Of a stretch of 40,000 bases of DNA, positions 3,077 to 24,742 are shown one piece after another. Both the position numbers and the translations under genes were made by a program. Source of the stretch: Terriglobia bacterium (GTDB lineage: Bacteria > Acidobacteriota > Terriglobia > Bryobacterales > Bryobacteraceae); the NCBI GenBank assembly GCA_963842825.1, contig CAWJHX010000009.1:532520-572519 (forward strand). The letters run 5' to 3'. How positions within the stretch are numbered: the first letter of the stretch is position 1; each line of letters opens with the position of its first letter. A model generated the notes under the pieces. That model ran no database searches, had not been told where the DNA came from, and was given only the letters and a program-made list of their open reading frames with translations.

Positions 3077-3802
3077 CTAGATCCAGCCGCGCGCCCAGTA
3101 ATAGGCGATCTTGGAGGTCTCCACCGAAAGCACCAGGAAAACCTCCCAGCGCCGATACCAAACCGATGTCCGCTTGAGCAAGTCCGGAATCGGCCGCGGC
3201 CGGGCCCGCAGGCCTACCTTGCGCGCTGCGCGGATGGCGCGGAACATATGGTAATCGCTGGTGAGCAGAACGACGCCGGCGTCGTTGCGACGGCTACCGG
3301 CGAGCCCATCCTGATCCACCAGCCGCTTCGCTTCCATCGCGTTCTCGCGCGTGCTACGGGAGGTGCGATCCACCAGCACGCGGTTGGGATCGACACCCTG
3401 GCTGACGACAAACTGGCGCATCGCCTCCGCGACCGGATTCGCCGGGGGGCCGCCGCATAGAATCATGCGCTGAAACCTGCCTTCGCGCCAGGCCCACACG
3501 GCATAAACCGTGCGCCAGTAGGATACCTCGCCGATCATGCCATCGCCTTGCACCTCGTTGCCGAACACCACCAGCGTATTTCCCGTGGGATCCCTCCAAT
3601 CGCCGGCCAGCGCTCGCGTCCACCACTCCGTCACGGGCGTCGCGACGATCAGCAATTGCAGCAGTCCCAGGATCGCCAGGGCGCCGGTGATCGTCCGGAC
3701 CATCCCCGGCTTTTGTGATTGGCCGGCCCTGCTTCGCTGGCCGAAACTTTGCGGCCGGCGCGGTCGTGGTTGAGAAAAAGAAGACATGATCGTGACTGTC
3801 AA
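3077..3802 (-). CDS. DUF218 (YdcF/ElyC-like) envelope-biogenesis protein with N-terminal membrane anchor
   Basis: TM segment ITGALAILGLLQLLIVATPV followed by a DUF218-like core: ILCGGPPANP...STRENA...VVLLTSDYHMFRA. Confidence 0.7.
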   Translation of the reverse strand: MTVTIMSSFSQPRPRRPQSFGQRSRAGQSQKPGMVRTITGALAILGLLQLLIVATPVTEWWTRALAGDWRDPTGNTLVVFGNEVQGDGMIGEVSYWRTVYAVWAWREGRFQRMILCGGPPANPVAEAMRQFVVSQGVDPNRVLVDRTSRSTRENAMEAKRLVDQDGLAGSRRNDAGVVLLTSDYHMFRAIRAARKVGLRARPRPIPDLLKRTSVWYRRWEVFLVLSVETSKIAYYWARGWI

Positions 3803-3842
3803 ACGTGGCGACGGTCATCCCCGGGACGGCGGAATCGGTGTC

Positions 3843-5333
3843 TCAAATGAACTTGATGCGCCGCATGGCCAGAAGCACCATGCGCAACAGGATCATGCCA
3901 TGCTTCCAGCGCTGGATATTGGTGTCCCCATACACCCTCTCGGCGTAACGGATCGGCAGATCCACCATCTTGAGATTGTACTTGGCGGCGCCGAAGATCA
4001 GATCGAAATCCCCGAACGGATCGATTTCGCCGAAGTAGGCGCGATTGCGCGCGATCACTTCGTAGTGCGCGCGGCTCAGCACCTTGGTGCCGCACAACGT
4101 GTCCTTGATGCTTTGATTCAGGAGCCATGAAAACGCCAGGCTGAAAAACTTGTTGCCGACCAGATTGAAGAATCGCATGGCGCGATCCTCCATGGGATAA
4201 ACTAGGCGGACGCCGTTGATATATTCCCCTTTCCCCGAGCGCCAGGCTTCGTAAAAACGCGGCAGATCCTCGGGCGGAACGGTCATATCCGCGTCCAGGA
4301 TCATGAGTACGTCGCCGGTGGCGTGGGCAAATCCCAGGCGTACGGCGTCGCCCTTGCCTTTGCCGGTCTGGCGAAATAGCCGGGCGTCGCGTCCCGGACG
4401 AAGCGCGAGTTCTCTTTCGATCGCCGCGTACGTATCGTCGGTGGAGTTGCCTTCGACGAAAATCAGTTCGGTCCCGCCGCCCATGTCAGGAACACGATCC
4501 AGGATGTGCGAGATGTTGCCGGCCTCGTTGCGCGCCGGGACCACTACACTAACCCGCGGCTCCGGCGGCGTAACGGGAACAGGCGCCGGCCGGGCCACCA
4601 GAAAATGCGTGATCGAGAAAATATTCCACGGCCACATCTTCACCAGGTAGCGATTCGCCAGCGCGTCGAGCCCCGGGGTGGGCACCGGCCACAGAATTTC
4701 CGGGCGCGTTTGAATCGTCTCAAATCCGGCGAGGTACAGGAGATTGTTCACGTCCGGAACGGTGAGCCAGTTCTGGCCCAGCTGCGGGCGCGCAATGCGG
4801 AGCGCTTCGGCAACGCGGCGCGGCCCCTCCCATAACCGGCTGTAGAAATTCATCACGACGCGGGTTCCGGGATGAACGCAATGATGCAAAGTTTCGAGCG
4901 TCTGCTGCACGTCCCACAGATCGTTGATCAGATCCGAGGCCACGACGAAATCGAAACGTTCTCCGCCAAGATCGAACGAATGAGCGTCGCCGGTCAGCAG
5001 ACGCAGGTTCGGATACTTGCGCCGGCCCTGCTCGAGGCGCGCGGGCGAAAGATCCAGTCCAACGCCTTCAGAGGGTCGCAGGGCCGCGAGCAGATCGCCT
5101 TCCCCGCATCCCAGTTCCAGAACGCGAGAGCCGGGAGGGATGACAAAGCGGTACAGTTCCGCGAGCCTCTGCCGGTAGAAGCGCCGGGGTCCGTCCCAGC
5201 CGGGCTGCTTGCGCGCGTAGGCATCCCAATAACGGCGGCGCTCCTCGGTGTAGGCCGCCTGTTTCGCCGCCGCCGCAACACCGTCGGAGGAAGCGCTGTT
5301 TTTGATGGGGACTTCGGTCTTCATGCCGGCCAT
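3843..5333 (-). CDS. Bifunctional class I SAM-dependent methyltransferase (N-terminal) :: family 2 glycosyltransferase (C-terminal)
   Basis: The methyltransferase motif I is VLELGCGEGDLL. The GT2 part has VSVVVPARNEAGNI (GT-A N-terminus) and the ILDADMT DxD motif. The protein is 496 aa. Confidence 0.8.
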   Translation of the reverse strand: MAGMKTEVPIKNSASSDGVAAAAKQAAYTEERRRYWDAYARKQPGWDGPRRFYRQRLAELYRFVIPPGSRVLELGCGEGDLLAALRPSEGVGLDLSPARLEQGRRKYPNLRLLTGDAHSFDLGGERFDFVVASDLINDLWDVQQTLETLHHCVHPGTRVVMNFYSRLWEGPRRVAEALRIARPQLGQNWLTVPDVNNLLYLAGFETIQTRPEILWPVPTPGLDALANRYLVKMWPWNIFSITHFLVARPAPVPVTPPEPRVSVVVPARNEAGNISHILDRVPDMGGGTELIFVEGNSTDDTYAAIERELALRPGRDARLFRQTGKGKGDAVRLGFAHATGDVLMILDADMTVPPEDLPRFYEAWRSGKGEYINGVRLVYPMEDRAMRFFNLVGNKFFSLAFSWLLNQSIKDTLCGTKVLSRAHYEVIARNRAYFGEIDPFGDFDLIFGAAKYNLKMVDLPIRYAERVYGDTNIQRWKHGMILLRMVLLAMRRIKFI

Positions 5334-5489
5334 GCAACGCCGTGTCCTGATTCACAACTTCCGCGGGCAGACCATCAGTGTCAGGATTCCGGGAATGTCA
5401 ATGATTCCAGTTTAGAGGAAGGGCCGCTCATCGGCGGTCTTCCGGCAAGGCCGATATGACTTTGTTTTCGCGCGCCGGTTTCCGGTGAG

Positions 5490-6317
5490 CTACTTTACCG
5501 TGACCTTCACGAACGCGTTGGTCCAGCAGCACTGATAACCGCCGCCGCCGGGACCCGAAAGATCGTTGGCGACGACGCGCAGCAGATACTCGCCGGGTTC
5601 GCTGAAGGTTGCCGTGGTGGAGGTCTTGCCGTTGAACGCCGCCTCGCCCGTGGTCTTTTCGATCGCCGGCTTGGTGGCCGCGAAAGTCACGTTGCCCGGC
5701 CCGCGATATTTGCTCCAGGTGATCGCCACCGGAATCGGACGCGGCCGTGGATTCGCGGAAGGGAGCTTCGCGTCGTCGGCGATCGAAAGCGGCAGCGGCA
5801 GCGGATTCGACGCGCTCACCGCCATATTGACGGTGATAGGCTTCGGTCCTTGGTTGGATTCCCCGTTTTCGAAACGCAGCACCGGCGGGGTGTTCCCGGT
5901 CGCTTCTTTATACGGCGAGATCTCCCACAGCGGATCGAGGCTCGCGGGGATGGAGGCCGTCTGGCCGTTCACCGTCAGCGTCCAGGTGACTTTGTTCTTT
6001 CCGAAATCCTTCGGGACGTTCACCATGAAGATGCCCCACTGCCGGCCCGGGATGAAATGCGTGGGCTGCCCGCGATCCGGCCCGCCCGGCTCGATGCGAT
6101 TGTTCGCTCCGGTGGGGACATCCAGCTCCTGCACCTGATTGCGGCTGAAGTATCCGAACGAGAGGCTATAGGTGCCGTCCGGATTCTGGAACCAGCCTTC
6201 GTAAGCGGGCGTCACGCCCTGGCCGCGATCGTGAAACGGCTCGATCGGCAGCGACTGCGCGGATAAGATCGTCGCGACGGCGCTGGTCACAACGCAAAAA
6301 CAGAACAGGTCCCGCAT
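5490..6317 (-). CDS. Secreted hypothetical protein, downstream in the operon with the cytochrome c/PHM-like gene
   Basis: Start placed at the internal ATG at 6317 (MRDLFCFCVVTSAVATILSAQS, signal-peptide-like), 11 nt after the stop of the upstream gene. No recognisable family. The antisense ORFs 5566..6138 and 5850..6266 are shadows. Confidence 0.6.
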   Translation of the reverse strand: MRDLFCFCVVTSAVATILSAQSLPIEPFHDRGQGVTPAYEGWFQNPDGTYSLSFGYFSRNQVQELDVPTGANNRIEPGGPDRGQPTHFIPGRQWGIFMVNVPKDFGKNKVTWTLTVNGQTASIPASLDPLWEISPYKEATGNTPPVLRFENGESNQGPKPITVNMAVSASNPLPLPLSIADDAKLPSANPRPRPIPVAITWSKYRGPGNVTFAATKPAIEKTTGEAAFNGKTSTTATFSEPGEYLLRVVANDLSGPGGGGYQCCWTNAFVKVTVK

Positions 6318-6328
6318 GGTTTTTTCGC

Positions 6329-7705
6329 TTACTTGCTGGCTTGCGCCCCCGCCTGTGCGACGGTCGCGCCCTTCTTGGCGAGATACGACTGATACTCCTC
6401 GTCGCTGAGGAACGTCACGTTGACCCACGCGTGCGCCATTTCATCGACCGTGCGCTCGCCCCATCCCACCCACTGCGTTGGATCCGGATTGTTCGGATTG
6501 TTGGCGGTGTTATCGTGCCAGGCGGTGACGTGAATCACGGTCCCCGCCGGCAGCACCGGCGCCGCGTCTTCCGCGTAAATATAATTGGTCATCCAGTTGA
6601 AGTTGAAGCGATCGACGTAACTCAGCATCTGCGTCGAGCCATCCGGCAGGATCGCTTCCATCGCCATGGCCTTGCCTCGCAGATGCATATGCGGCTGGAA
6701 ATTTTCCAACTTCGCGGGATGCCGCAACACGTGAAATCCCTGCGTCTCGGTTACGCTGTTCGGCGGAATATCAAGCGTCTGCTCGTGTTCGCCGCCGACA
6801 TAACTACCGGCCGTGAACGACAGCAAATAGGTGCGATCCTTCGGCTCCTGTCCCTTGGGATAGAAATAAATGGCGAGCTGCGTCTGACCCGTGATCTCCT
6901 CGCCCACCGCATGGAGGTGCAGCTCCCACCAGATCCGCGAACCGGGCAGAAGCAGCTTGCCCGTGCCGGGCGCGTACAGGTCGTAGCTCTTTCCGATGGC
7001 CCATTCCATCAGCATCCCCGGGCCGCTGTTGTTGGCGTCGACGGCGGTCAGCAGCGAGCTGCGCAGGTCCGGCTCCTCCTGCTGTAGCCGCGCGATCGCG
7101 TGATGCACGATGCGCCGGGCTTGCGGCGTGGTCGGCCGGATCTCCACGGCGCGCACCCACCGGGGCTCGGTGATCGGCACGTTCGCGTACGGCTTCCACC
7201 ATACGTCCTGACCGTGCGCAGGCATCGTATAAGGTTCCGACTCGATCACCAAATCGGGTTGGCCGAGCGTCTTCGCAAGCTGCCACTCTTTGAAATCCGG
7301 AAATTCCTTGGGAGGCGGCATGTCCTTGGGATCGCCCATGGGCGCGCCCGCGTCCACCCAGCGCGAAATCGTCGCGATCTGGTCGTCGCTGAGCGAGAAG
7401 TCGTTGGCGAATTTCTGGATGCCGACGGTCTTATCCAGGTGCCACGGAGGCATGGCCCGCGTCACCACCTTTTGCTTGATGGCTTTGGCCCACGGACGAG
7501 TTTCGTCGTAAGTGACGAGCGACATCGGCGCGCTCGATCCGACGCGGTGGCACTCCTGGCACTTTTCCTGAAAGATCGGAGCGATATCCTTTGTAAACGT
7601 GACCGGCTTCGCGGTCAGCTCCGCACCCGCCAATGATCCTGCCAGCAAGGTTCCCAACAAACCCGCGCCGATGCCTATTCCACCCCGGAATCCGCAAATG
7701 GGCAT
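6329..7705 (-). CDS. Cytochrome c domain fused to a PHM/DBH-like (copper type II ascorbate-dependent monooxygenase-like) two-domain beta-sandwich; secreted
   Basis: Signal-like N-terminus. Heme c motif CQECH in FTKDIAPIFQEKCQECHR...MPPW. All six PHM copper ligands are present in the canonical order: VHHAI (CuH His-His), WELHLHAV (CuH His), QPHMHLRGKAM (CuM HxH; compare PHM VHTHHLGK) and TVDEMAHAW (CuM Met; compare PHM SSDEMCNLY). AAGGAG RBS 7 nt upstream of the ATG. Confidence 0.7.
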   Translation of the reverse strand: MPICGFRGGIGIGAGLLGTLLAGSLAGAELTAKPVTFTKDIAPIFQEKCQECHRVGSSAPMSLVTYDETRPWAKAIKQKVVTRAMPPWHLDKTVGIQKFANDFSLSDDQIATISRWVDAGAPMGDPKDMPPPKEFPDFKEWQLAKTLGQPDLVIESEPYTMPAHGQDVWWKPYANVPITEPRWVRAVEIRPTTPQARRIVHHAIARLQQEEPDLRSSLLTAVDANNSGPGMLMEWAIGKSYDLYAPGTGKLLLPGSRIWWELHLHAVGEEITGQTQLAIYFYPKGQEPKDRTYLLSFTAGSYVGGEHEQTLDIPPNSVTETQGFHVLRHPAKLENFQPHMHLRGKAMAMEAILPDGSTQMLSYVDRFNFNWMTNYIYAEDAAPVLPAGTVIHVTAWHDNTANNPNNPDPTQWVGWGERTVDEMAHAWVNVTFLSDEEYQSYLAKKGATVAQAGAQASK

Positions 7706-7749
7706 ACACGACTCCTTTGTGCAGCAGTTTACTGGGTTTAGGGGTTGGA

Positions 7750-7763
7750 GTCAATGCGGTCGG
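7750..7763. repeat. Left copy of the 14-bp direct repeat GTCAATGCGGTCGG (putative target-site duplication of the casposon)
   Basis: Identical 14-mer at 24743..24756 in the same orientation. Each copy directly abuts the outer end of a terminal inverted repeat. Confidence 0.85.
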
Positions 7764-7799
7764 GGGTTAGGAGATAGAGGGTTTTGAAACCGCACCCCC
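7764..7799 (+). repeat. Left terminal inverted repeat (TIR-L) of the casposon
   Basis: GGGTTAGGAGATAGAGGGTTTTGAAACCGCACCCCC. The reverse complement of 24707..24742 is GGGTTAGGAGATAGAGGGGTTTGAAACCGCACCCCC, so 35/36 positions are identical. This also explains the shared peptide GCGFK(T/P)LYLLT in spurious ORFs 7738..8118(-) and 24637..24927(+). Confidence 0.9.
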
Positions 7800-8111
7800 T
7801 ATCTAACCGCGCGGTGCTCCATGTTTGTCGTGGCGACGCCGCGCCGCGATTTTGTGGGTGCAGCGTTGCGTAGCCGTCGGGTCTTGGATGAAACCGTGTC
7901 GGCTGTGAAGCCGAGAAAACACGGCTCTGCTGATTTAATTTAGTGCAGGGTGGAATAGCCCGCCGTAGCAGACCTTGCCGGTGACGCTCCTGTGGAAGCT
8001 GGTGTACTGGCCGCCACAGGCAACTTCTCCGGTCACGCCTTCGTGATAGCTGGTGTGACGGGCCAGAGATAAAGGACCAGAGGCGCGGCACACGTTTTAT
8101 ACTTTGGGGAA

Positions 8112-8624
8112 ATGCCAATTGACGCCTGCACCAGTACTTTCGCAGAGATGGCCGCGAGCATCCTGCCGGGTGATATGGCGAGGCTCCGGGCGGCTCTAGC
8201 TACACCGGTTCCAATGTCTTCGTTTTGTGAACATGGGTTCGGCGTCAAATCCATCGTTGCAAAGTTGCGACGAAGTACAGATTTTTCAGGGTGCTATGTG
8301 CTGCTGCGGGAAGGAAAGCCGTTCTACGTTGGCATTTCACGAACCGTGGTTCAACGACTTCGCCAACATGTGACAGGAAAAACCCATTTCGACGCAAGTC
8401 TTGCCTACCTAATGGCGACCGATAAAACAGGCCACAAAATGAAACGGGCCGATGCCATGCTAGACCCTGTCTTCCGCACGGCCTTCGATCAAGCCAAGGC
8501 GCTGCTTCGAGATTGCAGTGCCGCGTTTATCGACATCGAAAACCCTCTCGAACTCTACCTGTTTGAAGCCTACTGCGCGATGGAGTTGGACACCTGCGAG
8601 TGGAACACGTTTCGGACCCATTGA
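8112..8624 (+). CDS. GIY-YIG nuclease superfamily-like protein (casposon cargo)
   Basis: GCYVLLREGKPFYVGISRTVVQRLRQH matches the GIY...YVG...R...H pattern. A downstream conserved Glu is plausible in LELYLFEAYCAMEL. The true start is uncertain, since several in-frame Met codons lie downstream of 8112. Confidence 0.5.
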   Translation: MPIDACTSTFAEMAASILPGDMARLRAALATPVPMSSFCEHGFGVKSIVAKLRRSTDFSGCYVLLREGKPFYVGISRTVVQRLRQHVTGKTHFDASLAYLMATDKTGHKMKRADAMLDPVFRTAFDQAKALLRDCSAAFIDIENPLELYLFEAYCAMELDTCEWNTFRTH

Positions 8625-8770
8625 TCGGCACTGGTTGCGCAAAGGACCCTTTGTGAGACACAACAAATTAGGTGGAGGACTTCGGAATCTGACTTAATCG
8701 ATAATCAAAGCATTCTCGAACAACCGCTAAATCCACCGCACAACTGTCACGCGGGGGAAGGAGTGAATTT

Positions 8771-9574
8771 ATGGGGGATGAGCGACTGCCTACACCAACA
8801 ACGCCGGTCGACCCCATTGCGGATGACGACCCCGTAAAGCTGCATCTTGAGGAGCGCGCTCAGCTCATCGACGCGGCCAGAGAGAACGCGCGAACGTTCG
8901 ACAAGGCTGTACTGACATTTGGCTCAGCCGTTTTCGGCTTCTCTATCGCATTCCTAAAGGATGTAGCCCCTCATCCTGCGCCCGGCACTCTGTGGTGGTT
9001 GGGTGGCGCATGGGCATCTTTCTCATTCGGTTTACTCAGCATACTTACGTCATTTCTCTGTGGCCAACAAGCTTTTCAGTTTGAAATTACCGAAAGTACC
9101 AACGCTCTGGCCCCAGGGTATCAGCGCAAAAAGAATCGCTGGAGTACGGCGGCCCAGTGCGGCAATGTTCTTTGCGTTGTGTTTCTCTTCTTTGGATTGC
9201 TGTGTTGGTCAAAGTTTGCATTTGATAACCTTAGCCGTGTAGACACCACGGCGACTACGGTTCAGACCCCGGTGGGAAAAGAGGGGCCAAAGGAAGGCGC
9301 ATTGAAACCTACGAAAGATACTTCAGACACTTTACCACTCAAAAAAACGTACACACCACCCCGAACACCGCCACCGCCTAACAGGCTGTTGAAGAATATT
9401 GGCGAGCTGAGCAGGAGAGCGTTCTTAGGGGCGAAGAAAGAGTTTCCGAGGGCGTGGGCAGGGGTTTCAGCGCCTGAGGAAGAGCCTCAGGCGGCGGCCT
9501 GGCGGCCTTTTACGCAGCCGCTTCCATCAGATTACGGATTCGGATCATATTATAGGCAGCGGCGGCGAAGGTGA
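8771..9574 (+). CDS. Membrane protein with proline-rich C-terminal tail; 3' end interrupted by IS insertion at 9381/9382 (reading frame continues into the IS)
   Basis: GGAAGGAG RBS upstream of the ATG at 8771. Predicted TM segments: VLTFGSAVFGFSIAFL, WWLGGAWASFSFGLLSILTSFL and NVLCVVFLFFGLLCW. From 9382 onward the translated sequence (NRLLKNIGELS...) is IS-derived. Removing the IS and one CTAA copy restores ...TYTPPRTPPPPKRNPPPPPSQKP*, ending at 10691. Confidence 0.6.
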   Translation: MGDERLPTPTTPVDPIADDDPVKLHLEERAQLIDAARENARTFDKAVLTFGSAVFGFSIAFLKDVAPHPAPGTLWWLGGAWASFSFGLLSILTSFLCGQQAFQFEITESTNALAPGYQRKKNRWSTAAQCGNVLCVVFLFFGLLCWSKFAFDNLSRVDTTATTVQTPVGKEGPKEGALKPTKDTSDTLPLKKTYTPPRTPPPPNRLLKNIGELSRRAFLGAKKEFPRAWAGVSAPEEEPQAAAWRPFTQPLPSDYGFGSYYRQRRRR

Positions 9575-10647
9575 ACATCCAAGCGACTCTGTCGCGGCCT
9601 CGATGCCTGGTCTTGCGAAGCCCCGCCGTGGTCTTGATCCAGCCGAATACCTGTTCGACTAACTTACGCTTCTTCTGACTCGCCCGATATCCATCGTGCC
9701 GCGTGGTGCGGACATCGATGCGGCTCCGCCGCCGGGTGTTGTTCTGCGCGATGTGCGGAGTTACGGCCCACTGTCGCAGACCTTCTACAAACGCACTGGT
9801 GTCATAACCCTTGTCCGCGCCCAACGTCACGCGCCGCCGATGGCCCGGAAGCCGAGCCGCCATCACCAGCGCCGCATCCCGCTCGGCTCGTCCGTTTGCT
9901 TCGGTGAGTTCGGCATCCACCGCCAGGCCATGCCGATTGTCGATGATCACATGACCGAGATACGCCATCTGCGCTTCCTTTCCGCTGCTCTTGCGATAGA
10001 GCTTCGCTTCCGGATCGGTGGTCGATTGATGCGTATCGTTGCGGCGTTTCTGTCCGCGGAATCCGCCCTCGCCATTCGTGTCGTCATCCGAGCCACCGTC
10101 TTTCGGACGGAAGCTCTTGTGCGATGCCCAGGCCTCGATCAGCGTGCCATCGACCGTGAAGTGTTCGTTGGAGAGCAACCGTAACGCGCGGGCTTGTTCC
10201 ACCACGCAAGAGAATAGTTCCTGCGCCACATCGCCCGCCAGCAGCCGTTCGCGATTCTTCGAAAACACCGCATGATTCCATGCCGGCTCGGTCATGTTCA
10301 ATCCCACGAACCACCGGAACAACAGGTTGTATTCCAGTTGCTCGACCAGCATTCGCTCGCTGCGAATCGAGTACAACGCCTGCAGCAACAGGGCGCGCAG
10401 TAATCTTTCCGGTGCAATCGAGGGACGTCCCGCTTTCGCGTACATCTCATCAAAGCGCCTCGACATCGATTCCAGCGCCGCATCCACCATGGCCCGCAGC
10501 GGACGCAACGGATGCTCTTGCGGCACCCGCTCCTCCAGCGTCCCGTATAGAAATAGCTCGTTATCTTGCCGATCGTCTCCGCGCATGATTGTAGGGCGTC
10601 GCCACTTTCCTTCAGGTCACAGCGATAAAGTGTTTTTCAACATTCTG
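9382..10647 (-). mobile_element. IS5-family insertion sequence nested in the casposon
   Basis: Single DDE transposase ORF. Imperfect terminal IRs: CAGGCTGTTGAAGAATA (left) versus CAGAATGTTGAAAAACA (reverse complement of the right end), 13/17 identical. Flanked by a 4-bp direct repeat CTAA (9378..9381 and 10648..10651), which matches the YTAR target duplication known for IS5-group elements. Confidence 0.75.
9510..10586 (-). CDS. IS5-family DDE transposase (InsH-like N-terminal DUF772 domain + DDE_Tnp_1)
   Basis: The sequence HPLRPLRAMVDAALESMSRRFDEMYAKAGRPSIAPERLLRALLLQALYSIRSERMLVEQLEYNLLFRWFVGL is a textbook IS5/IS1182-type transposase N-terminus. The C-terminal DDE region includes ...LGADKGYDT... 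and ...VEQVFGWIK. Confidence 0.9.
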   Translation of the reverse strand: MRGDDRQDNELFLYGTLEERVPQEHPLRPLRAMVDAALESMSRRFDEMYAKAGRPSIAPERLLRALLLQALYSIRSERMLVEQLEYNLLFRWFVGLNMTEPAWNHAVFSKNRERLLAGDVAQELFSCVVEQARALRLLSNEHFTVDGTLIEAWASHKSFRPKDGGSDDDTNGEGGFRGQKRRNDTHQSTTDPEAKLYRKSSGKEAQMAYLGHVIIDNRHGLAVDAELTEANGRAERDAALVMAARLPGHRRRVTLGADKGYDTSAFVEGLRQWAVTPHIAQNNTRRRSRIDVRTTRHDGYRASQKKRKLVEQVFGWIKTTAGLRKTRHRGRDRVAWMFTFAAAAYNMIRIRNLMEAAA

Positions 10648-11150: not shown

Positions 11151-14084
11151 TCATCTGTGAATGCCTTCCAACAAATTCCAGCGCCGAATTCCGCCTTTCG
11201 CGTCGCCAGAGATGGCGCTGTGTTGATCGGGACACCAGTCAACATCGCGTACATCAGCAGTATGGCCTTCTAAGATCCGAAGGCACTGCCGCGTCTCGAC
11301 GTCCCATTGCCGCACAGTGTTGTCTGCGGAGCCGGAGAGAGCGTGGCGACCGTCGGCAGCCCACGCCAGCGTCACTACATACTCAATGTGACCTTCGAAG
11401 GTGCGCAAGCATTGTTCCGTTTCAACATCCCAAAGCCGCAAAGAGCCGTCCTCAGAACTGGAAAGAAAGCGGGATTGATCCGGACTCCACTTCACACAAT
11501 ACACGGGAGAGTCATGGCCTCTGAAAATTCGCAGGCATTGGTGCGTCTCGACGTCCCATAGCCGCACGGTGTTGTCTTCGGAGCTAGAGAGTACGCGAGA
11601 CTGATCCGCATTCCATTCCGCGCTCGTAACTGTGTCAGTGTGTCCTTCAAGAACCCCAACGCAGCTTCCCATCTCAACGTTCCAAAGTCGCACGCTGTGG
11701 TCACAAGAGCCGGAACAGGCGTAGCGCTGATCACGGCTCCAAGCGACACTCCAGACTTGTTCTGTATGACCTTCGAGAATGCGCAAGCATAGACCCGTAT
11801 TGACGTCCCATAGCCTTACGGTATGATCATCAGCCGCAGACAACGCGGAACATCGGTCGTTGCTCCAGGCAACACATTCAACAGGTTTTGTATGCCCTTC
11901 GAATAGACGTAGGCAGTGCCCTGTTTCCAAGTCCCATAGCCGCACGGTCTTGTCCCGACCTCCCGTTAGAGCCCGTCTTGAATCCGGGCTGAATGCGTAG
12001 CAATAGAAGGGGCCCTTATCCGCGAGTTGGATGGCTTTGTTGATAAGCCCTTCCGGTGCCGTCGATGGTTCGAATGTCGTTGAGCGCTGAGTGGGGTCTT
12101 CGGCAACTGACTCGCGGCTGGCCCCCCACTTGTCGTGAGTGGTAGCGCCGAAGGAGAGCCGATTTTGAGTTCTTATGAACGTGAGCCGAGCCGAGCTTCG
12201 AAACCACCATTGACCGTCGGCATCCCTATACGTGACGCTGACGGTAATGCAATAATCTGGACCTCCATATATTCCACCGCCACCAGACTTCGAATCAGCT
12301 TCGGCGAAAGCCGCTGGCAGGTTCCATTTTTGCCCCGCTATCGCAAGCCCCGAATAACCTTCCAGCCACACCAAGGCAAATCCGGCCCTGCCTTTATCGA
12401 TCCGTGCAATTGTCTCGGCAGCGGCTCTCACCGATGGCGCAATCTCAAATCCCTCTATCGTTACGTCGTACGCCACTGTGCCATCGTTCACCAGATAAAA
12501 CCCGGCTTGGCCCGAACGTATTGGCACAGGGTGTTCCTCTGGGATTTCACCCCACTCGCGAAAGACAATTCGAGGACGCTTAGAAGGCGGGCGTGATCGG
12601 TTTTCTGTTGGATGATTGGATAAGAAATTGACTTGAGACGCCCCGCGCGGACGAAAGATTCCTTGGGGCAGAGCTCGCAAGAGCGCAAAAAATAGAGAAG
12701 CAGCTGTATTGCAAGCATAGTTTGTCCATGCTGGGTCTCTCCTGAACCCTACGACATCGCTAATGCCACGAATAGCTAGGATTGGGTATTCCTTATCCAT
12801 CCGCCGCGCTGCGGCGTAGACGCCCGAAAGCTCCATCTCAACAGCCACCAGATCACGTGCCGCTTGGCTCCACTGTTGGATGGTTACAGTATCTTTGATG
12901 AGGTGGCCGCTGGACGCGATCGAGCGAGCGGTTACAATCGGGTGTTCCCGCCTAGCCATCGATCCGAAGCGGGCATTGAGGGCTTCCTGAACTTTCTGCT
13001 TCCACTCCTTGGAACCGTAAAACCTATCGGGACTTGTATCAACGTCCGGACGCGGGAGTTGAATATGAGCTTCCGTGTTCCAATCCTCTAATGGCAAGGC
13101 ACGGAACGAAGCGATGAGGTCTTGTACCGCCTTGTTCATCGGGCCGCCTTGGTTGGCTAACTCCGGGTTTGTGCCTTCTATAAGCGCACTAACCGTAAAA
13201 TCGTGCAATCGATTTGCTACGACGACATCTCCCAATGTGAATTCAGTGTTTGGGATAGCGCCGCCAATACCGACGAGGGCCAGCCAGTGTGGGCTTAGGT
13301 CCTCGATGATATCGCGGGCTGCATCCTGCCCCGCATTGGGACCCTGTTCGATGGCTCGCAGGACAGCGACACGGTAGGAATCGCCGTTCTGACTAGATAC
13401 CGTTCCAATGACATATGTCCGGTGTTTAAGTCTGATGACGTTTTGTTCTGGTAGGCGACTCAAGACAGCATCGTATTCATCCTCTCGAACCGTGATGACC
13501 GCAATGTCTATTGGCGTTGGCTTGCCATACGCACCGCCAGTGTCATCACTTGGATGGCCCGGACGAACATAGAATTTGGAGGAGGGTTCACGCAAGGTCT
13601 CTTCGTTCGACTCACCCGCGTTGAATGAAGGCGTATTTTGGGCGGAAGAACTGATTGAGGGTGCCGGTATTAGACGTTTATAACCTTCGCCAATCCAGTG
13701 ACCGATCCGCTGTTGAATGACATGAAACTGCTGATCCCCCGGCATCGGTTGAAGTATTTCCGGTGGACATCCGAGGTAGTCTTGCCAAGCTTGGCGCCCG
13801 AGTGCGTTTGCCAGCGTCATGAATGCCTCTTGAGACTCCATGTTTCCTACGAGCTCAAGATAAGCTGTGGCGCGAATGTCGAGCTGGCGTAACACCACTT
13901 CGAGTCGAGCTGGAGTTGCCCACCGCTTTTCCTCCTCGGTGAGACTATCCACAAGCTGATTGGTGTCATTGATTATTCGAACCTGGGCAGCAGGAAACCC
14001 TGGATTGCGCTTTAGAATGTTCTCTGCTCTTTCTATAGCTTGCTGACGGGCGCGAGCGGCACGCCTCTCATGTCGCGTCATCAT
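11151..14084 (-). CDS. Multidomain protein: N-terminal helical region + PNP_UDP_1 nucleoside phosphorylase/nucleosidase-like domain + beta-rich linker + 7-bladed WD40 propeller (candidate conflict/defence effector; casposon cargo)
   Basis: Phosphorylase-superfamily signatures: ALVGIGGAIP, VAVEMELSGVYAAARR and ILAIRGISDVVG (about aa 195-470). Seven very regular ~42-aa WD40 units (GHTxxVxxVAWSxDxxxxLSxSxDxTVRLWDVETGQCLRxxE) span about aa 690-977. I found no Walker A/P-loop between them. Confidence 0.8.
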   Translation of the reverse strand: MMTRHERRAARARQQAIERAENILKRNPGFPAAQVRIINDTNQLVDSLTEEEKRWATPARLEVVLRQLDIRATAYLELVGNMESQEAFMTLANALGRQAWQDYLGCPPEILQPMPGDQQFHVIQQRIGHWIGEGYKRLIPAPSISSSAQNTPSFNAGESNEETLREPSSKFYVRPGHPSDDTGGAYGKPTPIDIAVITVREDEYDAVLSRLPEQNVIRLKHRTYVIGTVSSQNGDSYRVAVLRAIEQGPNAGQDAARDIIEDLSPHWLALVGIGGAIPNTEFTLGDVVVANRLHDFTVSALIEGTNPELANQGGPMNKAVQDLIASFRALPLEDWNTEAHIQLPRPDVDTSPDRFYGSKEWKQKVQEALNARFGSMARREHPIVTARSIASSGHLIKDTVTIQQWSQAARDLVAVEMELSGVYAAARRMDKEYPILAIRGISDVVGFRRDPAWTNYACNTAASLFFALLRALPQGIFRPRGASQVNFLSNHPTENRSRPPSKRPRIVFREWGEIPEEHPVPIRSGQAGFYLVNDGTVAYDVTIEGFEIAPSVRAAAETIARIDKGRAGFALVWLEGYSGLAIAGQKWNLPAAFAEADSKSGGGGIYGGPDYCITVSVTYRDADGQWWFRSSARLTFIRTQNRLSFGATTHDKWGASRESVAEDPTQRSTTFEPSTAPEGLINKAIQLADKGPFYCYAFSPDSRRALTGGRDKTVRLWDLETGHCLRLFEGHTKPVECVAWSNDRCSALSAADDHTVRLWDVNTGLCLRILEGHTEQVWSVAWSRDQRYACSGSCDHSVRLWNVEMGSCVGVLEGHTDTVTSAEWNADQSRVLSSSEDNTVRLWDVETHQCLRIFRGHDSPVYCVKWSPDQSRFLSSSEDGSLRLWDVETEQCLRTFEGHIEYVVTLAWAADGRHALSGSADNTVRQWDVETRQCLRILEGHTADVRDVDWCPDQHSAISGDAKGGIRRWNLLEGIHR

Positions 14085-14383: not shown

Positions 14384-16000
14384 TTATCGAATAACCTCCC
14401 GTTCAACTGGTGCGGGCTCCATTTCCGGATATCTTAAGATTCCGGTCAGTTCCGCCAGCTTCACCCAATGCCTCGGATGCGGAATTCGCTTGCCATTGCG
14501 AACGTTCGCAGCGTACGGCAGAGAAACGCCGAGCACCGATGCGATAGACGACCTCGTAACCGTCGCAAGCAATGGCACGATCTTGGCCCTATAAACATCT
14601 TCGTTCAACCAGGTGGGCAAGCTGGCCGCGTCCCAGTTCTTGGCAGCAGCAACATTCTTGCGCAGAGTAGCAGCGCGCCGGCTTTGAGCATCCGAAGAAT
14701 GTGCAACTGAGCGACCTTTCACGGCTGCAACTTTCATATGCTCTGTTGCGACGATCATCCCGCATGACTTGCAGTGTTCCGTTCCCCGGCGCGTTGTCTT
14801 TCCGCAAATGCGGCAAACGCCGTCCGGAAAGATTGGCCTAATCGAGGCATCGTCGAAACTGCTACCTTTCACGATCCGCTTCTGTTCTTGAGTCAGGCGT
14901 GTTGGTGTGGACCTGTAGCGCGCGTGTTTCGGACCTTTTGACCACAATGCCCGCGCCACATATTCCGCCAGCGGAGCTATTGCGCGACGCCACGTTTGTG
15001 CGGTTTCCGAAAGTAGCGCCGCGAGCGGTGCCATCAGGCGGCAGTTCCCATCGCTCTGCTCGAAAAACCATTCCCGCCTGAGCGGTTCGCGAGCGATCCA
15101 GTTCAACACGAAAGCGTCAACCTGAGGGCGAACCGGCTCCATCAGATCTGCAGGCAGACTATCGCGATGGGTAGCGTCCGCGTGCATAAAGCCAAGGCAC
15201 GGATCGAGACCTAGCATTGCCGTGGCGAGGCGGGCCTCGGCCTCCAGGATTGCGTAAAGGTAGTTCAGCATCGCATTGGCGGGATTCGATGCAAGTCGCG
15301 GTGATCCGGAAAGCGGAGATCTGCGGGCGCGAAACGTCCTCCAGTGATCCGGCATGCATTGCAAGTCCCTCTGCGGAAATTGAATCTGCACGTCTCGCCA
15401 CGCTCCCCAATATGCCGCGCCTGCTTGGGATTCAAGCAAACGGATCGAATCGAAAGCGCTCAGCGACGGAATCTCTGAACGAAGGCGGGCGATTGCATCT
15501 GCCGCGACCGGATTTCGAAGGTGTGAGCGCGCGATCTCTTCCTGACCTAGGAGTTTCCTGGTAATCAAATCGCGCGTGATTTGAATTCCGATGCCAGATT
15601 GCCGCGCGAGCGCCTGGGCGCGCCTGAGGTGGACTTCGGATTTCCGAACCGGCCCTGTAACGGTCAGAATCTTACCATCCCTTTCTAGCATGACGAACGC
15701 CGCGTTTTGATCCGCAAGCCAGCGCAACGCGGCCAGCGAAACCATTCCATCGTGACCAATGACCACGAGCCTTTCGAGCCCGTGAGCGACGCGCGGTAAT
15801 CGGGCGTAGCGACGATCAGCCGCGATGCCATCTTCCAGAATCAAATGGCCACTATCGACACGGACTTGAATTCCGTAGCCGAAAAGCGTTATGACGCCGT
15901 GGCGGGGTGTGATTGCTAATTGGGGATTTGCGGCCAGAATTTCTGGCACGTTGGATTTGCGCAGGCGTAGCCGATGCGCTACGGTTTTCGTAGCTGCCAT
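14384..16000 (-). CDS. cas1: Cas1-family integrase (casposase) with C-terminal zinc ribbon and HTH extension
   Basis: Cas1 N-terminal beta domain: GVITLFGYGIQVRVDSGHLILEDG...LERLVVIGHDGMVSLAALRWLADQNAAFVMLERDGKIL. Catalytic alpha domain: SNPANAMLNYLYAILEAEARLATAMLGLDPCLGFMHADATHRDSLPADLMEPVRPQVD (Glu / His / Asp-Glu triad context). C-terminal CRICGKTTRRGTEHCKSCG and an HTH-like SSIASVLGVSLPYAANVRNGKRIPHPRHW. GGAGGG RBS upstream of the ATG at 16000. No cas2 gene or repeat array in the window. Confidence 0.9.
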   Translation of the reverse strand: MAATKTVAHRLRLRKSNVPEILAANPQLAITPRHGVITLFGYGIQVRVDSGHLILEDGIAADRRYARLPRVAHGLERLVVIGHDGMVSLAALRWLADQNAAFVMLERDGKILTVTGPVRKSEVHLRRAQALARQSGIGIQITRDLITRKLLGQEEIARSHLRNPVAADAIARLRSEIPSLSAFDSIRLLESQAGAAYWGAWRDVQIQFPQRDLQCMPDHWRTFRARRSPLSGSPRLASNPANAMLNYLYAILEAEARLATAMLGLDPCLGFMHADATHRDSLPADLMEPVRPQVDAFVLNWIAREPLRREWFFEQSDGNCRLMAPLAALLSETAQTWRRAIAPLAEYVARALWSKGPKHARYRSTPTRLTQEQKRIVKGSSFDDASIRPIFPDGVCRICGKTTRRGTEHCKSCGMIVATEHMKVAAVKGRSVAHSSDAQSRRAATLRKNVAAAKNWDAASLPTWLNEDVYRAKIVPLLATVTRSSIASVLGVSLPYAANVRNGKRIPHPRHWVKLAELTGILRYPEMEPAPVEREVIR

Positions 16001-17380: not shown

Positions 17381-17899
17381 ATGCCAAAGAAAATGCCCCA
17401 ACGAGATCCCATCAGTGCCTCCCAGCGAAAATCTGCCGCCGCTCGGCGTGTAGGGAAGAACGCACAGTGCACGCACTGCGGTGAAACGCGGCCTGAAGCC
17501 CTGATCGCGAATAGCAAACCACTCACATGCGCGGAATGCCAACGGAGGAGCCAAGGGAAATCGATCATAGATGATCACCACGTCGCCATGCGGGCAAACA
17601 ATCCGACGACGATGCCGGTTCCCGTGAACGATCACCGCGCCGAACTCAGCGCCGCCCAACATGATTGGCCCAAAAAGACGCGGGAGAATCCCGATGGCAG
17701 TCCGCTCATCGCCGCTGCCGGGTGTATTCGCGGATTCATGGACCAGCTTTTCTACTTGGTTGAAAAATTCTTGCACTGGACTGCTGGGATGCTTGAAGAC
17801 CTCGATTCTTACCTAATCGAAAAACTGGGGCCACAGTGGTGGTTACAGACTCCGCTGAAACAATTCGCGCCCCACGGAGGCTGCGATGCCAAATCCTAA
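17381..17899 (+). CDS. Zn-finger / HNH-like nuclease protein
   Basis: CTHCGE...(x19)...CAECQRR, followed by IIDDHHVAMRANNPTTMPVPVNDHRAEL (an H-N-H-like arrangement). It overlaps the PolB start by 14 nt. Confidence 0.5.
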   Translation: MPKKMPQRDPISASQRKSAAARRVGKNAQCTHCGETRPEALIANSKPLTCAECQRRSQGKSIIDDHHVAMRANNPTTMPVPVNDHRAELSAAQHDWPKKTRENPDGSPLIAAAGCIRGFMDQLFYLVEKFLHWTAGMLEDLDSYLIEKLGPQWWLQTPLKQFAPHGGCDAKS

Positions 17900-20800
17900 G
17901 CCAACTCCGTTGACGCTTGCCCTTCGGGTCTATCCCGAGCCCACGAACGCCAAGCGGGAACCGGCATCGCCCAAGCCATGGAAGTGCCCAAAGGCGATGC
18001 TCGTTTTTGACACCGAGACGCGGACCGACGCGACGCAACGCTTGACCTTTGGAAGCTACCGCTATTTTCATGAAGGCCGGTGCCTCGAAGAGGGCTTGTT
18101 CTACGCTGACGATTTGCCGGAAAAAGACCGTCGAGTTCTCGAAGAATACGTCGCAACGCACAGGCCTGAGACGGCTGGTGACGGCGTGCGGAATCTGAAG
18201 TTTCTTTCGCGCAGCCAGTTCGTTGACAAGTTCTATAGCTCCGTCTATAAGGGCCGTTGTCTTCTGGTTGGCTTCAATCTTCCCTTTGATCTCTCGCGCA
18301 TCGCCTGCGACTTCACAACCGCGCGCGGTCGCTTCGCGGGTGGTTTCTCCCTCGGCTTTTGGCTGTGGACGGATAAGACGGGCCGCGAGCGGGGGGATCA
18401 TTTCAGGCCCAGAATTGGGATCAAGCACATTGACAGCAAGCGCGCGCTGAAAGGTTTCACTGCGCGGAACGGCCCTGATCAAACGGACTTGATTCCAGAA
18501 GATTGCGAGACCGGGAGCCCCCAGAAGGGCTATAAGTTTCGGGGGCACTTCTTGGATCTGCGCACGCTGGCATTTGCGCTGACGGATAAGGGCTATTCTC
18601 TTGAGGCGGCTTGCGAAGCCTTCGGAGTGGAGCACGGAAAGCAGAAAGTCGCCAAGCATGGCGAGGTCACGGAAGAATACATCGACTACAATAGGCGCGA
18701 CGTTTTGGCCACTTCCGAACTCGCGGTGAAGCTCCTTGAAGAATACGACAAGCATCCAATCACGCTTCAGGCGACGAAGGCATATTCCCCGGCCTCCATC
18801 GGCAAGGCCTACTTGCGGGCGATGGGAATCGTGCCAATCCTGGAACGGCAACCGGGCTTCCCGAAGGAGTATCTCGGATACGCGCAGTCGGCCTTCTTTG
18901 GCGGACGAACGAGCGCACATATTCGAAAGCTTGCGGTCCCTGTTGTTTACACGGATTTTCTTTCGATGTATCCCACGGTAAACAGTCTCATGGATCTATG
19001 GCGCTTCGTTACTGCGCGTGAGATTCGGATCGTGAAGAACTGCAAGCGGGAGACCGAAGCATTCCTGGGCCGCGTGACCGTCGACGATCTTTTCAAGCCC
19101 GCCACGTGGAAATACCTGCCCGCGTTCGTCCGCATAATCCCGGACGGCGACATCCTGCCGACGCGCGCGAAATACAGCACCGTGAGCAACGATTGGCAGG
19201 TGGCCGTGAATCATGTGTATGCCGACAAGGACAGTTCGATCAATCAGGAACTGTGGTTTTCGCTTCCGGATATTGTTGCTTCGGTAATTCTGACGGGGCA
19301 AGTTCCCAAGATCGTGGATGCGTTCCGGATTGAGCCGAAAGGTAAAATGCAGGGGCTTACTCCAACCAAGCTGCGCGGATCGATTGAGATTGATCCAACG
19401 CGTCAAGACTTCTTCAAAGTGGCGATTGAAGAACGGAAACGCCTGCATTCGCACGCCGATCTTCCCGAAGCCGAAAAGAAGCGGCTCGACAAGGCCCTCA
19501 AGGTGCTGGCGAATGCCGCAAGCTACGGCATTTACGCCGAAATGAATCCTCAGGAGACGGATGAAAAGACGCAGGTAACGTGCCACGGCGTCGACTGCGA
19601 ACCGTTCACGTGCCGTGTTGCCCATCCCGACGTGCCGGGCGAATATTGCTTTCCGCCGCTTGCATCCTTAATAACAGGGGCAGCGCGTCTCATGTTGGCG
19701 CTGTTGGAACATTGCGTCTCGGCTTTGAATGGCACATACGCGATGGAGGACACCGATTCCATGGCGATTGTCGCGACCAAACGCGGCGGATTGGTGCCCT
19801 GTCCGGGAGGGTCCTTCAAGACCAAAGACGGTCGACCGGCGGTGAAAGCGCTCTCCTGGAAGCAGGTTGAAGAAATCTCGGAACGATTCGCGGCGCTGAA
19901 CCCGTACAATCGCGAAGCGGTGCCAGGATCAGTTCTCAAGATCGAAGAGGATAATTTTGATGCAAAAACAGGTCATCAGCGACAGCTCTCCTGCTTTGCA
20001 ATCTCGGCGAAGCGTTACACGCTATTCACGCTCGACAAGAGTGGTGAGCCCGTGATGCTGCGAAAGGAAGCCAACAACAAAAGTGACCGCTGGTCTCAGC
20101 ATGGCCTCGGGCATCTTTTGAATCCAACTGACACAAGCAGCGCGGATCGGGATTGGATCGGGCAAGTGTGGCTGAACATGTTGCGCAGATCTTATCGTCT
20201 GCCCGTTCAAAAGCTCAGTTTCGAAAAGTTACCCGCTGTTGGCCGCGTCAGTGTGGGCAGTCCCGCCACAATGCGCTCTTTTTCGAGTTTCAACGCTGGG
20301 AAGGCGTATTCCCAGCAAATTAAGCCCTTCAACTTTGTTCTGACTTGCCAAGTAAAGCAGCTTGGACATCCCAACGGCGTCGATCCAGAACATTTTCATC
20401 TGATCGCGCCGTCCGATGGCGAACCCGGCCGGTGGATCGAGACGGATTGGATCGACCAATATACCGGCAACCTATACAGGATCACAACCCAGGGTCACTA
20501 CGGAAGCCAAGATGCTGCGCGTGTAAAAACGTACGGCGAGATTCTGCGCGAATACGAATTTCATCCGGAGGCAAAGTGCGCCGACCAAGACGGAAATGCC
20601 TGCGAAAGGCGTGCGACTGGTTTGCTTCAACGAAGGCACGTCATAATTGACGGCATACGATTCATTGGAAAAGAATCGAATGCTCTGGAAGACGTTGAGG
20701 CCGGGCTGGTTCACTCCGCAGAAAGTGCCTACACCGAATACTGCGATCCGAAATACGACGAATGGACTACGAAAATCGCACCTGCATTGAAGAAAGCTCC

Positions 20801-24620: not shown

Positions 24621-24706
24621 CGAACACCAGCCCCCTTTGGGAACATCTTTCTGCCCTATTCTACTTTGCCGGACACACGGGTGGGTCCGACGACTAAAGA
24701 GTGTGG

Positions 24707-24742
24707 GGGGGTGCGGTTTCAAACCCCTCTATCTCCTAACCC
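24707..24742 (-). repeat. Right terminal inverted repeat (TIR-R) of the casposon
   Basis: The reverse complement matches TIR-L at 35/36 positions (see 7764..7799). Confidence 0.9.

Follow-up and report, generated by a model that had tools for sequence, protein, structure and literature searches.

A predicted PHM/DBH-type two-copper core joined to a c-type heme domain in soil Acidobacteriota

Introduction

Peptidylglycine alpha-hydroxylating monooxygenase (PHM) and DBH are regarded as eukaryotic, ascorbate-dependent enzymes; in the animal proteins ascorbate reduces both coppers, and in PHM R240 binds the substrate carboxylate. Here we describe a bacterial gene whose predicted product resembles these enzymes at its metal sites. 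The gene lies at positions 6329 to 7705 of a 40,000-nucleotide stretch from a Terriglobia bacterium (GenBank assembly GCA_963842825.1, contig CAWJHX010000009.1, positions 532,520 to 572,519 of the forward strand), the whole of which is called the window below. An initial annotation, made from the letters alone, had read it as a cytochrome c fused to a PHM/DBH-type copper monooxygenase core. The sequence comparisons and structure prediction reported here support a predicted architecture in which this protein, hereafter the fusion protein, carries a c-type heme domain on a PHM/DBH-type two-copper core, and we think it probable that it acts as a secreted, periplasmic oxygenase with heme c and two coppers.

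The route by which the second electron passes from the electron-transfer copper (CuH) to the catalytic copper (CuM), and whether the open or the closed conformer is active, are long-standing questions (PMC12164859, PMC4846438). The DOMON domain of DBH has the fold of the heme-binding cytochrome domain of cellobiose dehydrogenase; it is Ig-like and has no heme ligands (PMC4846438). A review of metalloproteomes lists PHM and DBM/DBH as eukaryotic cuproproteins only (PMC7435645). A search of the full-text literature, the coverage of which leaves out subscription journals, yielded no account of a PHM/DBH-type enzyme from bacteria or of such a fusion with cytochrome c, and no experimental study of any member of the present family. 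Superfamily-level database annotations may already flag the combination of cytochrome c and copper core in some entries.

In three-domain copper nitrite reductases (CuNiR), such as that of Ralstonia pickettii, electrons pass in the periplasm from a tethered c-type cytochrome to an electron-transfer copper and on to a catalytic copper. A chain running from dehydrogenase to cytochrome to copper monooxygenase is found where cellobiose dehydrogenase or a pyrroloquinoline quinone (PQQ)-dependent pyranose dehydrogenase works with lytic polysaccharide monooxygenases (LPMOs), and in the proposed transfer from methanol dehydrogenase and cytochrome cL to particulate methane monooxygenase (pMMO).

Results

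Organization of the fusion-protein gene

The open reading frame (ORF) of 458 amino acids (aa) is present on the minus strand, with an ATG start, as first described, and the translation contains every motif that the initial annotation had quoted: CQECH, VHHAI (H201, H202), HLHAV (H263, H265), HMHLRGK (H339, H341) and TVDEMAHAW (M423). The order of domains is signal peptide, heme domain, CuH domain and CuM domain, and the features are placed as follows.

6329 to 7705, minus strand: fusion-protein gene, an ATG-start ORF encoding 458 aa, assigned to PHM/DBH by Foldseek and hhalign
7712 to 7716, minus strand: AGGAG ribosome-binding site, 7 nucleotides (nt) 5' of the ATG, read from the sequence
7622 to 7705, minus strand: predicted Sec signal peptide, residues 1–28 (hydrophobic core and AGA/EL, by inspection of the translation)
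7331 to 7606, minus strand: predicted mono-heme c-type cytochrome domain, about residues 34–125 (Cytochrome_CBB3 match at residues 40–90)
7547 to 7561, minus strand: CQECH heme-attachment motif, residues 49–53 (C49, C52, H53), invariant in 65 of 65 relatives
7451 to 7453, minus strand: M85 in RxMPPW, probable distal heme ligand, invariant in 65 of 65 relatives
6836 to 7258, minus strand: predicted CuH (electron-transfer copper) beta-sandwich, about residues 150–290 (hhalign start at residue 153, beta-strands of the model, PF01082 match in relative P0218)
7100 to 7105, minus strand: H201 and H202, equivalent to PHM H107 and H108 (putative CuH ligands; hhalign and conservation)
6917 to 6919, minus strand: H263, equivalent to PHM H172 (putative third CuH ligand; hhalign and conservation)
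6404 to 6835, minus strand: predicted CuM (catalytic copper) beta-sandwich, about residues 291–434 (hhalign to residue 434, PF03712 matches in relatives)
6683 to 6691, minus strand: H339-M-H341, with H339 and H341 equivalent to PHM H242 and H244 (putative CuM ligands; hhalign and conservation)
6437 to 6439, minus strand: M423 in the DEM motif, equivalent to PHM M314 (putative CuM ligand; hhalign and conservation)

The N-terminus, MPICGFRGGIGIGAGLLGTLLAGSLAGA/EL, contains a hydrophobic stretch and reads on inspection of the translation as a Sec signal, in agreement with the signal peptide claimed earlier, and the N-termini of the homologs in an alignment of 33 orthologs are variable and hydrophobic. 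Cysteine occurs at just three positions of the fusion protein: C4 belongs to the signal peptide, C49 and C52 to the heme motif.

Fold of the core and mapping of the copper ligands

An AlphaFold2 model of the fusion protein was built on the ortholog alignment. The predicted local distance difference test (pLDDT) score is mostly 70–93 in its beta-rich core (about residues 140–440). When the model was compared with the PDB by Foldseek, every one of ranks 1 to 31 was a structure of rat PHM or human DBH, with probability 1.00 and E between 4e-10 and 2e-7. These matches aligned 299–332 columns at 10–14% identity, with a template modelling (TM) score of 0.53–0.64 when normalised on PHM and lower values for the longer DBH chains; from rank 32 onward the matches were to unrelated folds with TM <0.25.

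An alignment was also obtained with hhalign, in which a 65-sequence profile of the family was compared with one single PHM sequence as template. This was the catalytic core of rat PHM, verified against residues 1–312 of 4e4z_A, in which chain residue i is PAM residue i+44. The match had a probability of 95.9% and an E-value of 5.6e-9 over 249 columns, and it spanned residues 153–434 of the query and chain residues 21–280 of PHM. At CuH, H201/H202 are paired with H107/H108 and H263 with H172; at CuM, H339/H341 are paired with H242/H244 and M423 with M314. The H-x-H-x-x-G-K and D-E-M contexts are likewise aligned. With all six ligands aligned, there is a one-to-one correspondence with the copper ligands of PHM. 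The spacing in this alignment is also of the PHM/DBH type: at CuH two adjacent histidines are followed by one His about 60 residues on, and at CuM an HxH motif is followed by a Met about 70–80 residues on.

The PHM/DBH-type core of the initial annotation is thus upheld by the hhalign match and by a structure prediction in which PHM and DBH were the sole fold matches among the top 31. The ligand set proved complete and in the right order as proposed, with one qualification: the third CuH ligand would be H263, the first His of the HLH motif, and not H265.

Conservation of the predicted ligands

Two sets of homologs were compared, one of 33 orthologs (65–92% identical to the query) and one of 65 diverse relatives (30–56% identical). 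C49, C52, H53, M85, H201, H202, H263, H265, H339, H341 and M423 are invariant in all 33 orthologs. The CXXCH motif, M85, H201, H263, H339 and H341 are kept in every one of the diverse relatives as well, H202 in 64 and M423 in 63 of them. The sole invariant residues in that set are C49, C52, H53, M85, P86, W116, G124, P150, H201, H263, H339 and H341. Judged from these alignments, the conservation of the motifs is not due to chance.

The same comparison bears on alternative candidates. Only 42 of the 65 relatives keep H265, whereas all keep H263, which is therefore the conserved His of the HLH motif. Similarly, M61 is present in 58 relatives and M85, in MPPW, in all 65, and M85 is the probable distal (sixth) heme ligand.

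Comparison with PHM and DBH

PHM (PDB 1PHM, 1SDW, 4E4Z) is the best match by both fold and profile. Like the fusion protein, it consists of two beta-sandwiches with the same ligand order and similar spacing, and it shares the DEM sequence around the Met ligand and the G-K that follows HxH. The fusion protein differs from PHM in having an N-terminal c-type heme domain, a predicted bacterial periplasmic location rather than one in secretory granules, no fused PAL and an Ig-like partner protein (see below). DBH, tyramine beta-monooxygenase and MOXD1 (PDB 4ZEL) have the same catalytic core (Foldseek E 1.2e-8). DBH also resembles the fusion protein in having an extra domain N-terminal to CuH. Unlike the DOMON domain of DBH, however, the N-terminal domain of the fusion protein is a helical CXXCH cytochrome c for which covalent heme is predicted. 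DBH depends on ascorbate and has a C-terminal dimerisation domain that has no counterpart in the fusion protein.

Several observations weigh against the assignment. The query protein had no match to PF01082 or PF03712 in Pfam even at E<=1, no copper-monooxygenase match in NCBIfam, and no match to PHM among the PDB sequences, either by phmmer or by a profile of the 33 orthologs. The confidence of the model is moderate (mean pLDDT 67.9), the TM score is also moderate, the root-mean-square deviation is 6–8 Å and identity to PHM is just 11–14%. The heme domain is poorly predicted (pLDDT 26–60), as expected, because the model lacks the cofactor. The residues that bind peptide in PHM, R240, N316 and Y318, correspond to Q337, H425 and W427 in the fusion protein. 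PHM has intradomain disulfides, none of which can form in a core that has no cysteines. With both the substrate residues and the disulfides of PHM missing, the chemistry could differ from C–H hydroxylation. Finally, the direction of electron flow is assumed.

PHM Q170 is aligned by hhalign with E261. Q337, H425, W427 and E261 are all fixed in the ortholog group and variable across the wider family. Since the peptide-binding residues of PHM are replaced, the substrate would not be a peptidyl-glycine bound as in PHM. We conclude from these alignments that the fusion protein appears to be like PHM/DBH at the metal sites but is not a strict peptidylglycine hydroxylase (EC 1.14.17.3).

Reach of existing domain models

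The phmmer search against all PDB sequences gave only a weak match, of the heme-motif region to PccH, and the 33-ortholog profile added hydrazine synthase alone. Cytochrome_CBB3 (PF13442) matched residues 40–90 of the query at E 6e-5, with 23.7 bits against a cut-off of 27, and it matched 46 of the 65 relatives (best E 4e-9, up to 37.1 bits). The cytochrome c part of the fusion, with its CQECH motif, holds up as the initial annotation had it.

For the copper core, PF03712 was matched by 28 of the 65 relatives (best E 1.5e-6), with 15.9–18.5 bits against a cut-off of 23 in ten relatives inspected, and PF01082 by eight (best E 9.2e-5), the highest score being 23.1 bits where the cut-off is 30. 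In the cases inspected, the positions are those expected: PF01082 covers residues 150–254 of P0218, and PF03712 covers residues 313–434 of P0201. The initial annotation had named these two hidden Markov models as a check, and the outcome is divided: the query alone has no match, whereas its relatives have weak ones. Haem_bd was matched in 14 and AhpC-TSA in three of the 65 relatives. Bacterial database architectures that combine Cu2_monoox_C with Haem_bd, cytochrome c or AhpC-TSA are distant relatives; unlike those, the query and its close orthologs are missed by the Pfam models altogether.

The link to PHM is thus seen only when a diverse profile (profile–profile comparison) or the fold is used. 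The family lies at or beyond the edge of existing Pfam models, and public annotation is therefore uninformative. Public entries go by the names 'cytochrome c', 'mono/diheme cytochrome c family protein' and 'hypothetical protein', and the database records of close orthologs carry no precomputed Cu2 domain.

Size and distribution of the family

An exact look-up with the fusion protein gave no recorded contig. A word-indexed search returned at least 8000 clusters, the best 120 of which are 66–92% identical. A profile search of 1.84 billion representatives (clustered at 50% identity) gave 17,183 matches at E<=1e-3, some of the weakest of which may match the heme domain only, 10,656 at E<=1e-10 and 2,665 at E<=1e-30. 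A genome scan with the ortholog alignment found at least 581 fusion-gene loci, the best 80 of which were kept for taxonomy; gene neighbours were counted over 83 loci. The best 80 are almost all from Acidobacteriota (Terriglobia, Bryobacterales, Solibacteraceae and one Blastocatellia). The survey of the fusion that the initial annotation had called for, made by profile search and genome scan, therefore places it mainly in soil Acidobacteriota. Among the matches listed, the closest relative of the window's fusion gene (93% identity) is in a Terriglobia metagenome-assembled genome.

At least two paralogs of the fusion gene occur per genome in some of the best 80 loci (contigs CAVROL010000010.1, CAWBGF010000002.1, CAWDNV01, DATJAK01 and CAWIKC01), which hints at diversification over substrates. 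Some distant members of the family have larger architectures. P0132 (1251 aa) appears to combine the copper core with AhpC/TSA, cytochrome c and thioredoxin-like domains and with a further heme domain; in P0140 (1064 aa) the family's unit occurs twice, along with EF-hands; and P0243 carries a 5'-nucleotidase C-terminal domain.

A conserved partner protein

The fusion gene ends with TAA at 6331–6329, and an 11-nt spacer, GCGAAAAAACC, separates it from the ATG of a second gene at 6317.

5490 to 6317, minus strand: 275-aa partner gene (adjacency, natural fusions and model), with predicted tandem Ig-like beta-sandwiches and a C-terminal GGGGYQCCWTNA motif

This ORF has its own signal-like N-terminus and follows 11 nt downstream, as stated for the secreted protein of the initial annotation. 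Co-transcription of the two genes is suggested by the spacing and the conserved adjacency. Scans for promoters and terminators gave no excess over the shuffled expectation, and a lone promoter-like site at 7754–7726 is not evidence.

In about 71 of the 77 loci with enough flanking sequence, the gene immediately 3' of the fusion gene, in the same orientation, encodes a homolog of the partner; in two further loci the homolog lies about 3 kb away. These homologs share 48–86% identity, and the partner family comprises at least 7416 clusters, all named hypothetical. The partner protein has no Pfam domain and no NCBIfam match. Its model (mean pLDDT 71.3) shows tandem Ig-like beta-sandwiches. A fold search with it gave only generic Ig-like PDB matches with TM <=0.3, and these suggest no function.

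In some relatives the two proteins are one polypeptide. In the P0130 cluster, many members of which lie on separate contigs (JGI, ENA, NCBI and Logan), and in the P0136 cluster, which has six members, the enzyme continues in-frame at its C-terminus into the partner; these were counted as independent fusion clusters. In P0123 the partner is instead fused at the N-terminus of the enzyme. The natural fusions, together with the conserved adjacency, argue for a physical complex of enzyme and partner, and the partner is likely, on this genomic evidence, a subunit of the enzyme. That it serves in substrate recognition or scaffolding is a guess.

Two side observations concern the partner gene. The orthologs show no variation in the loop GGGGYQCCWTNA (5490–5540, residues ~257–268), in which two cysteines stand side by side. 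We considered the vicinal Cys-Cys of this GGxGxQCCWTNA motif as a metal or redox site and rejected it as a general property of the family, since it is absent in the naturally fused forms. At a 91%-identical ortholog locus (L003/L005:2619-3444), an apparent frameshift divides the partner gene in two, which points to either an assembly error or a pseudogene.

Gene neighbourhoods and PAL-like propellers

Clustering of neighbouring ORFs over the 83 loci gave the following recurrent neighbours.

PQQ-dependent dehydrogenase (PF01011, E 2.5e-181): 27 of 83 loci
NHL propellers: 22 of 83 loci
Unannotated 292-aa protein: 20 of 83 loci
Cytochrome c of about 150 aa: 15 of 83 loci
DUF6152: 10 of 83 loci

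In about 14 loci the genes lie on one strand in the order NHL propeller, fusion enzyme, partner, PQQ dehydrogenase (~700 aa) and cytochrome c; examples of such larger clusters are L021, L022, L027, L028, L031, L035, L036 and L045 (~3500–9800). The accessory genes are scattered over the fusion-protein tree and occur also in the clade that is sister to the window's. Within the clade of the window itself, mainly the two-gene core has been kept.

PAL, the other half of the animal amidating enzyme PAM, is a zinc lyase built as an NHL propeller, and the NHL neighbours were therefore compared with rat PAL, using a reference sequence verified against 3fvz_A. A PAL-related propeller was found within 5 kb of the fusion gene in 19 of the 83 loci. 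Two types were distinguished. Type A (~330–375 aa) shares 33–45% identity with rat PAL; it retains H585, H690 and R706, and its Y654 is usually replaced by His. Type B (~410–458 aa) immediately precedes the fusion gene in the same orientation (gap −47 to +15 nt) and keeps Y654, R706 and H585, with Val at H690. All six catalytic residues of PAL (R533, H585, Y654, H690, R706 and H786) are kept in one protein, L058:2901-4118 (plus strand). Other PAL-like propellers near fusion homologs, again 33–45% identical to rat PAL, are L035:1111-2238, L045:1033-2070 and L001:4204-5229.

No PAL domain was found in the fusion protein or adjoining it within the window. The window does encode a 732-aa protein with several NHL propellers (22524–24722, minus strand), which we considered as a PAL partner and rejected; its match is a generic repeat match at 23% identity. 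We regard the PAL-like neighbours as a lead, not a finding.

One could nevertheless envision a bacterial counterpart of the two-step PAM reaction, as a special case of the heme- and copper-containing oxygenase proposed here. Hydroxylation by the PHM-type enzyme would take place at a carbon adjacent to N (or O), the PAL-like propeller would cleave the resulting carbinolamide, and the PQQ dehydrogenase would oxidise a product, with electrons returning via cytochrome c. The propellers within 5 kb, some with the PAL catalytic residues kept, are consistent with this scheme, as is the presence of the PQQ dehydrogenase and the small cytochrome c downstream in the ~14 loci, which are spread over several subclades. 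However, the locus in the window consists of the two-gene core alone, and its NHL protein, with the generic match noted above, is 15 kb away. In most PAL-like neighbours one catalytic residue is altered (Y654 to H or H690 to V), R240 of PHM, which binds the glycine carboxylate, is not conserved, and NHL propellers are common in these genomes. We consider this PAM-like scheme unlikely.

Other features of these regions are recorded as side observations. In 10 to 20 loci, the module has beside it genes for a DUF6152 protein and, next in order, an unannotated protein some 290 aa long (for example, L002:4395-5834, L014, L015, L016, L009 and L001:9511-10647). In the window, the two-gene core is followed on the same strand by genes for a methyltransferase–GT2 fusion, a DUF218 protein and a UDP-glucose dehydrogenase, an order common to the window and to the closest relative, L004. 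Synteny with L004 ends at about 7759, just upstream of the fusion gene. The segment from 7759 to 10586 contains a GIY-YIG-like ORF (8112–8624), a 267-aa ORF without assigned function and an IS5/DDE transposase gene (9510–10586), which suggests a zone of mobile-element insertion. Farther away are genes for a 977-aa WD40 repeat protein (11151–14084, minus strand), a long Cas1 homolog of 538 aa (14384–16000, minus strand; PF01867, E 8.7e-40) and, about 2 kb from the latter, a 1021-aa protein (17886–20951, plus strand) with a weak match to family-B DNA polymerase (PF03175, E 4.6e-6). Cas1 together with PolB is a signature of casposon-type mobile elements.

Discussion

The mechanism that we propose for the fusion protein follows the order of its domains. 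After Sec export, heme would be attached covalently at C49-x-x-C52-H53, a motif that is present in the sequence, with Met85 as the probable sixth ligand. H201, H202 and H263 are placed by fold and alignment where they would hold CuH, and H339, H341 and M423 where they would hold CuM. By analogy with PHM and DBH, O2 would bind to reduced CuM, and the copper-superoxo species would take a hydrogen from a substrate C–H bond in the interdomain cleft; the second electron would come from CuH, and the product would be hydroxylated. The tethered cytochrome c, which stands directly before the CuH domain, would pass single electrons from periplasmic carriers to CuH, and the heme would thus, as the architecture suggests, replace ascorbate as the reductant of CuH. 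For some relatives, a plausible donor is the pair encoded in the same cluster, the small cytochrome c and the PQQ dehydrogenase. The downstream Ig-like protein would be a stoichiometric subunit. The periplasmic, ascorbate-independent electron supply that the initial annotation had proposed is a reasonable inference.

This arrangement has partial parallels. CuNiR likewise feeds copper from a tethered cytochrome, but it differs from the fusion protein in its cupredoxin fold, in its type 1 and type 2 coppers, and in reducing nitrite instead of activating O2. The couplings of LPMOs and pMMO resemble the clusters of PQQ dehydrogenase, cytochrome c and fusion enzyme in the ~14 loci. They involve other copper sites and folds, however, and their heme is on the dehydrogenase, whereas in the fusion protein it is on the oxygenase.

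An alternative explanation is that the core is an oxidase or peroxidase, which reduces O2 or H2O2 with electrons from the heme and serves as a periplasmic sink or detoxifier, with no hydroxylation. The AhpC/TSA, Redoxin or thioredoxin-like domains of some distant relatives, such as P0132, would fit such a role, and none of the substrate-binding residues of PHM is conserved. Against it, the characterised members of the fold are, as far as is known, all tightly coupled monooxygenases (PMC9064607). Moreover, the dedicated partner, the many paralogs and the catabolic type of the neighbours are better explained by diversification over substrates. We regard the oxidase or peroxidase as improbable, though less so than the two explanations that follow.

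It is very improbable that the protein is a plain cytochrome c whose beta-sandwich part is a structural appendage and has lost its copper binding; although public names say only cytochrome c or hypothetical protein and curated models miss the C-terminal 300 residues of the query, the equivalents of the six PHM ligands are invariant or nearly so down to 30% identity while their surroundings vary freely, which would not be expected of a decayed site. Equally remote is a reverse flow, in which a dehydrogenase would oxidise its substrate at the copper core and send electrons out through the heme to the respiratory chain: a tethered cytochrome c is the electron exit of many periplasmic dehydrogenases, and no result here fixes the direction of electrons, but a separate His3 and His2Met copper pair is known only from O2-activating monooxygenases, and the fusion protein has no further cofactor-binding motif.

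If the fusion protein is indeed a heme c and two-copper oxygenase, then we rate its two-copper core as known and its built-in electron supply, obligate partner subunit and bacterial taxonomic home as new. The built-in c-type heme would provide an optical and electrochemical handle at the point of electron entry. Triggered electron transfer from heme to copper within one polypeptide could directly test the questions of the second-electron route and of the active conformer. The recurrence of PAL-like genes near the fusion gene is also relevant to how the bifunctional amidating enzyme PAM arose in evolution. Where PAL-like and PQQ genes are present, one may speculate that hydroxylation, cleavage by the lyase and oxidation of the product form a closed redox loop. 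Extending this, we tentatively suggest, while thinking it rather unlikely, a widespread bacterial, ascorbate-free pathway of periplasmic oxidative cleavage that parallels animal PAM in evolution and in mechanism: a PHM-type hydroxylase supplied by heme c, its Ig-like subunit and a separate PAL-like lyase, with PQQ dehydrogenase and cytochrome c closing the loop, would act on abundant soil organics in Acidobacteriota.

Our results suggest that a very large and highly conserved group of bacterial enzymes, as yet unstudied, draws its electrons from heme and not from vitamin C. With about 17,000 representatives, annotated as cytochrome c, in the Acidobacteriota that dominate in soil, an abundant O2-activating activity may be going unnoticed in these organisms.

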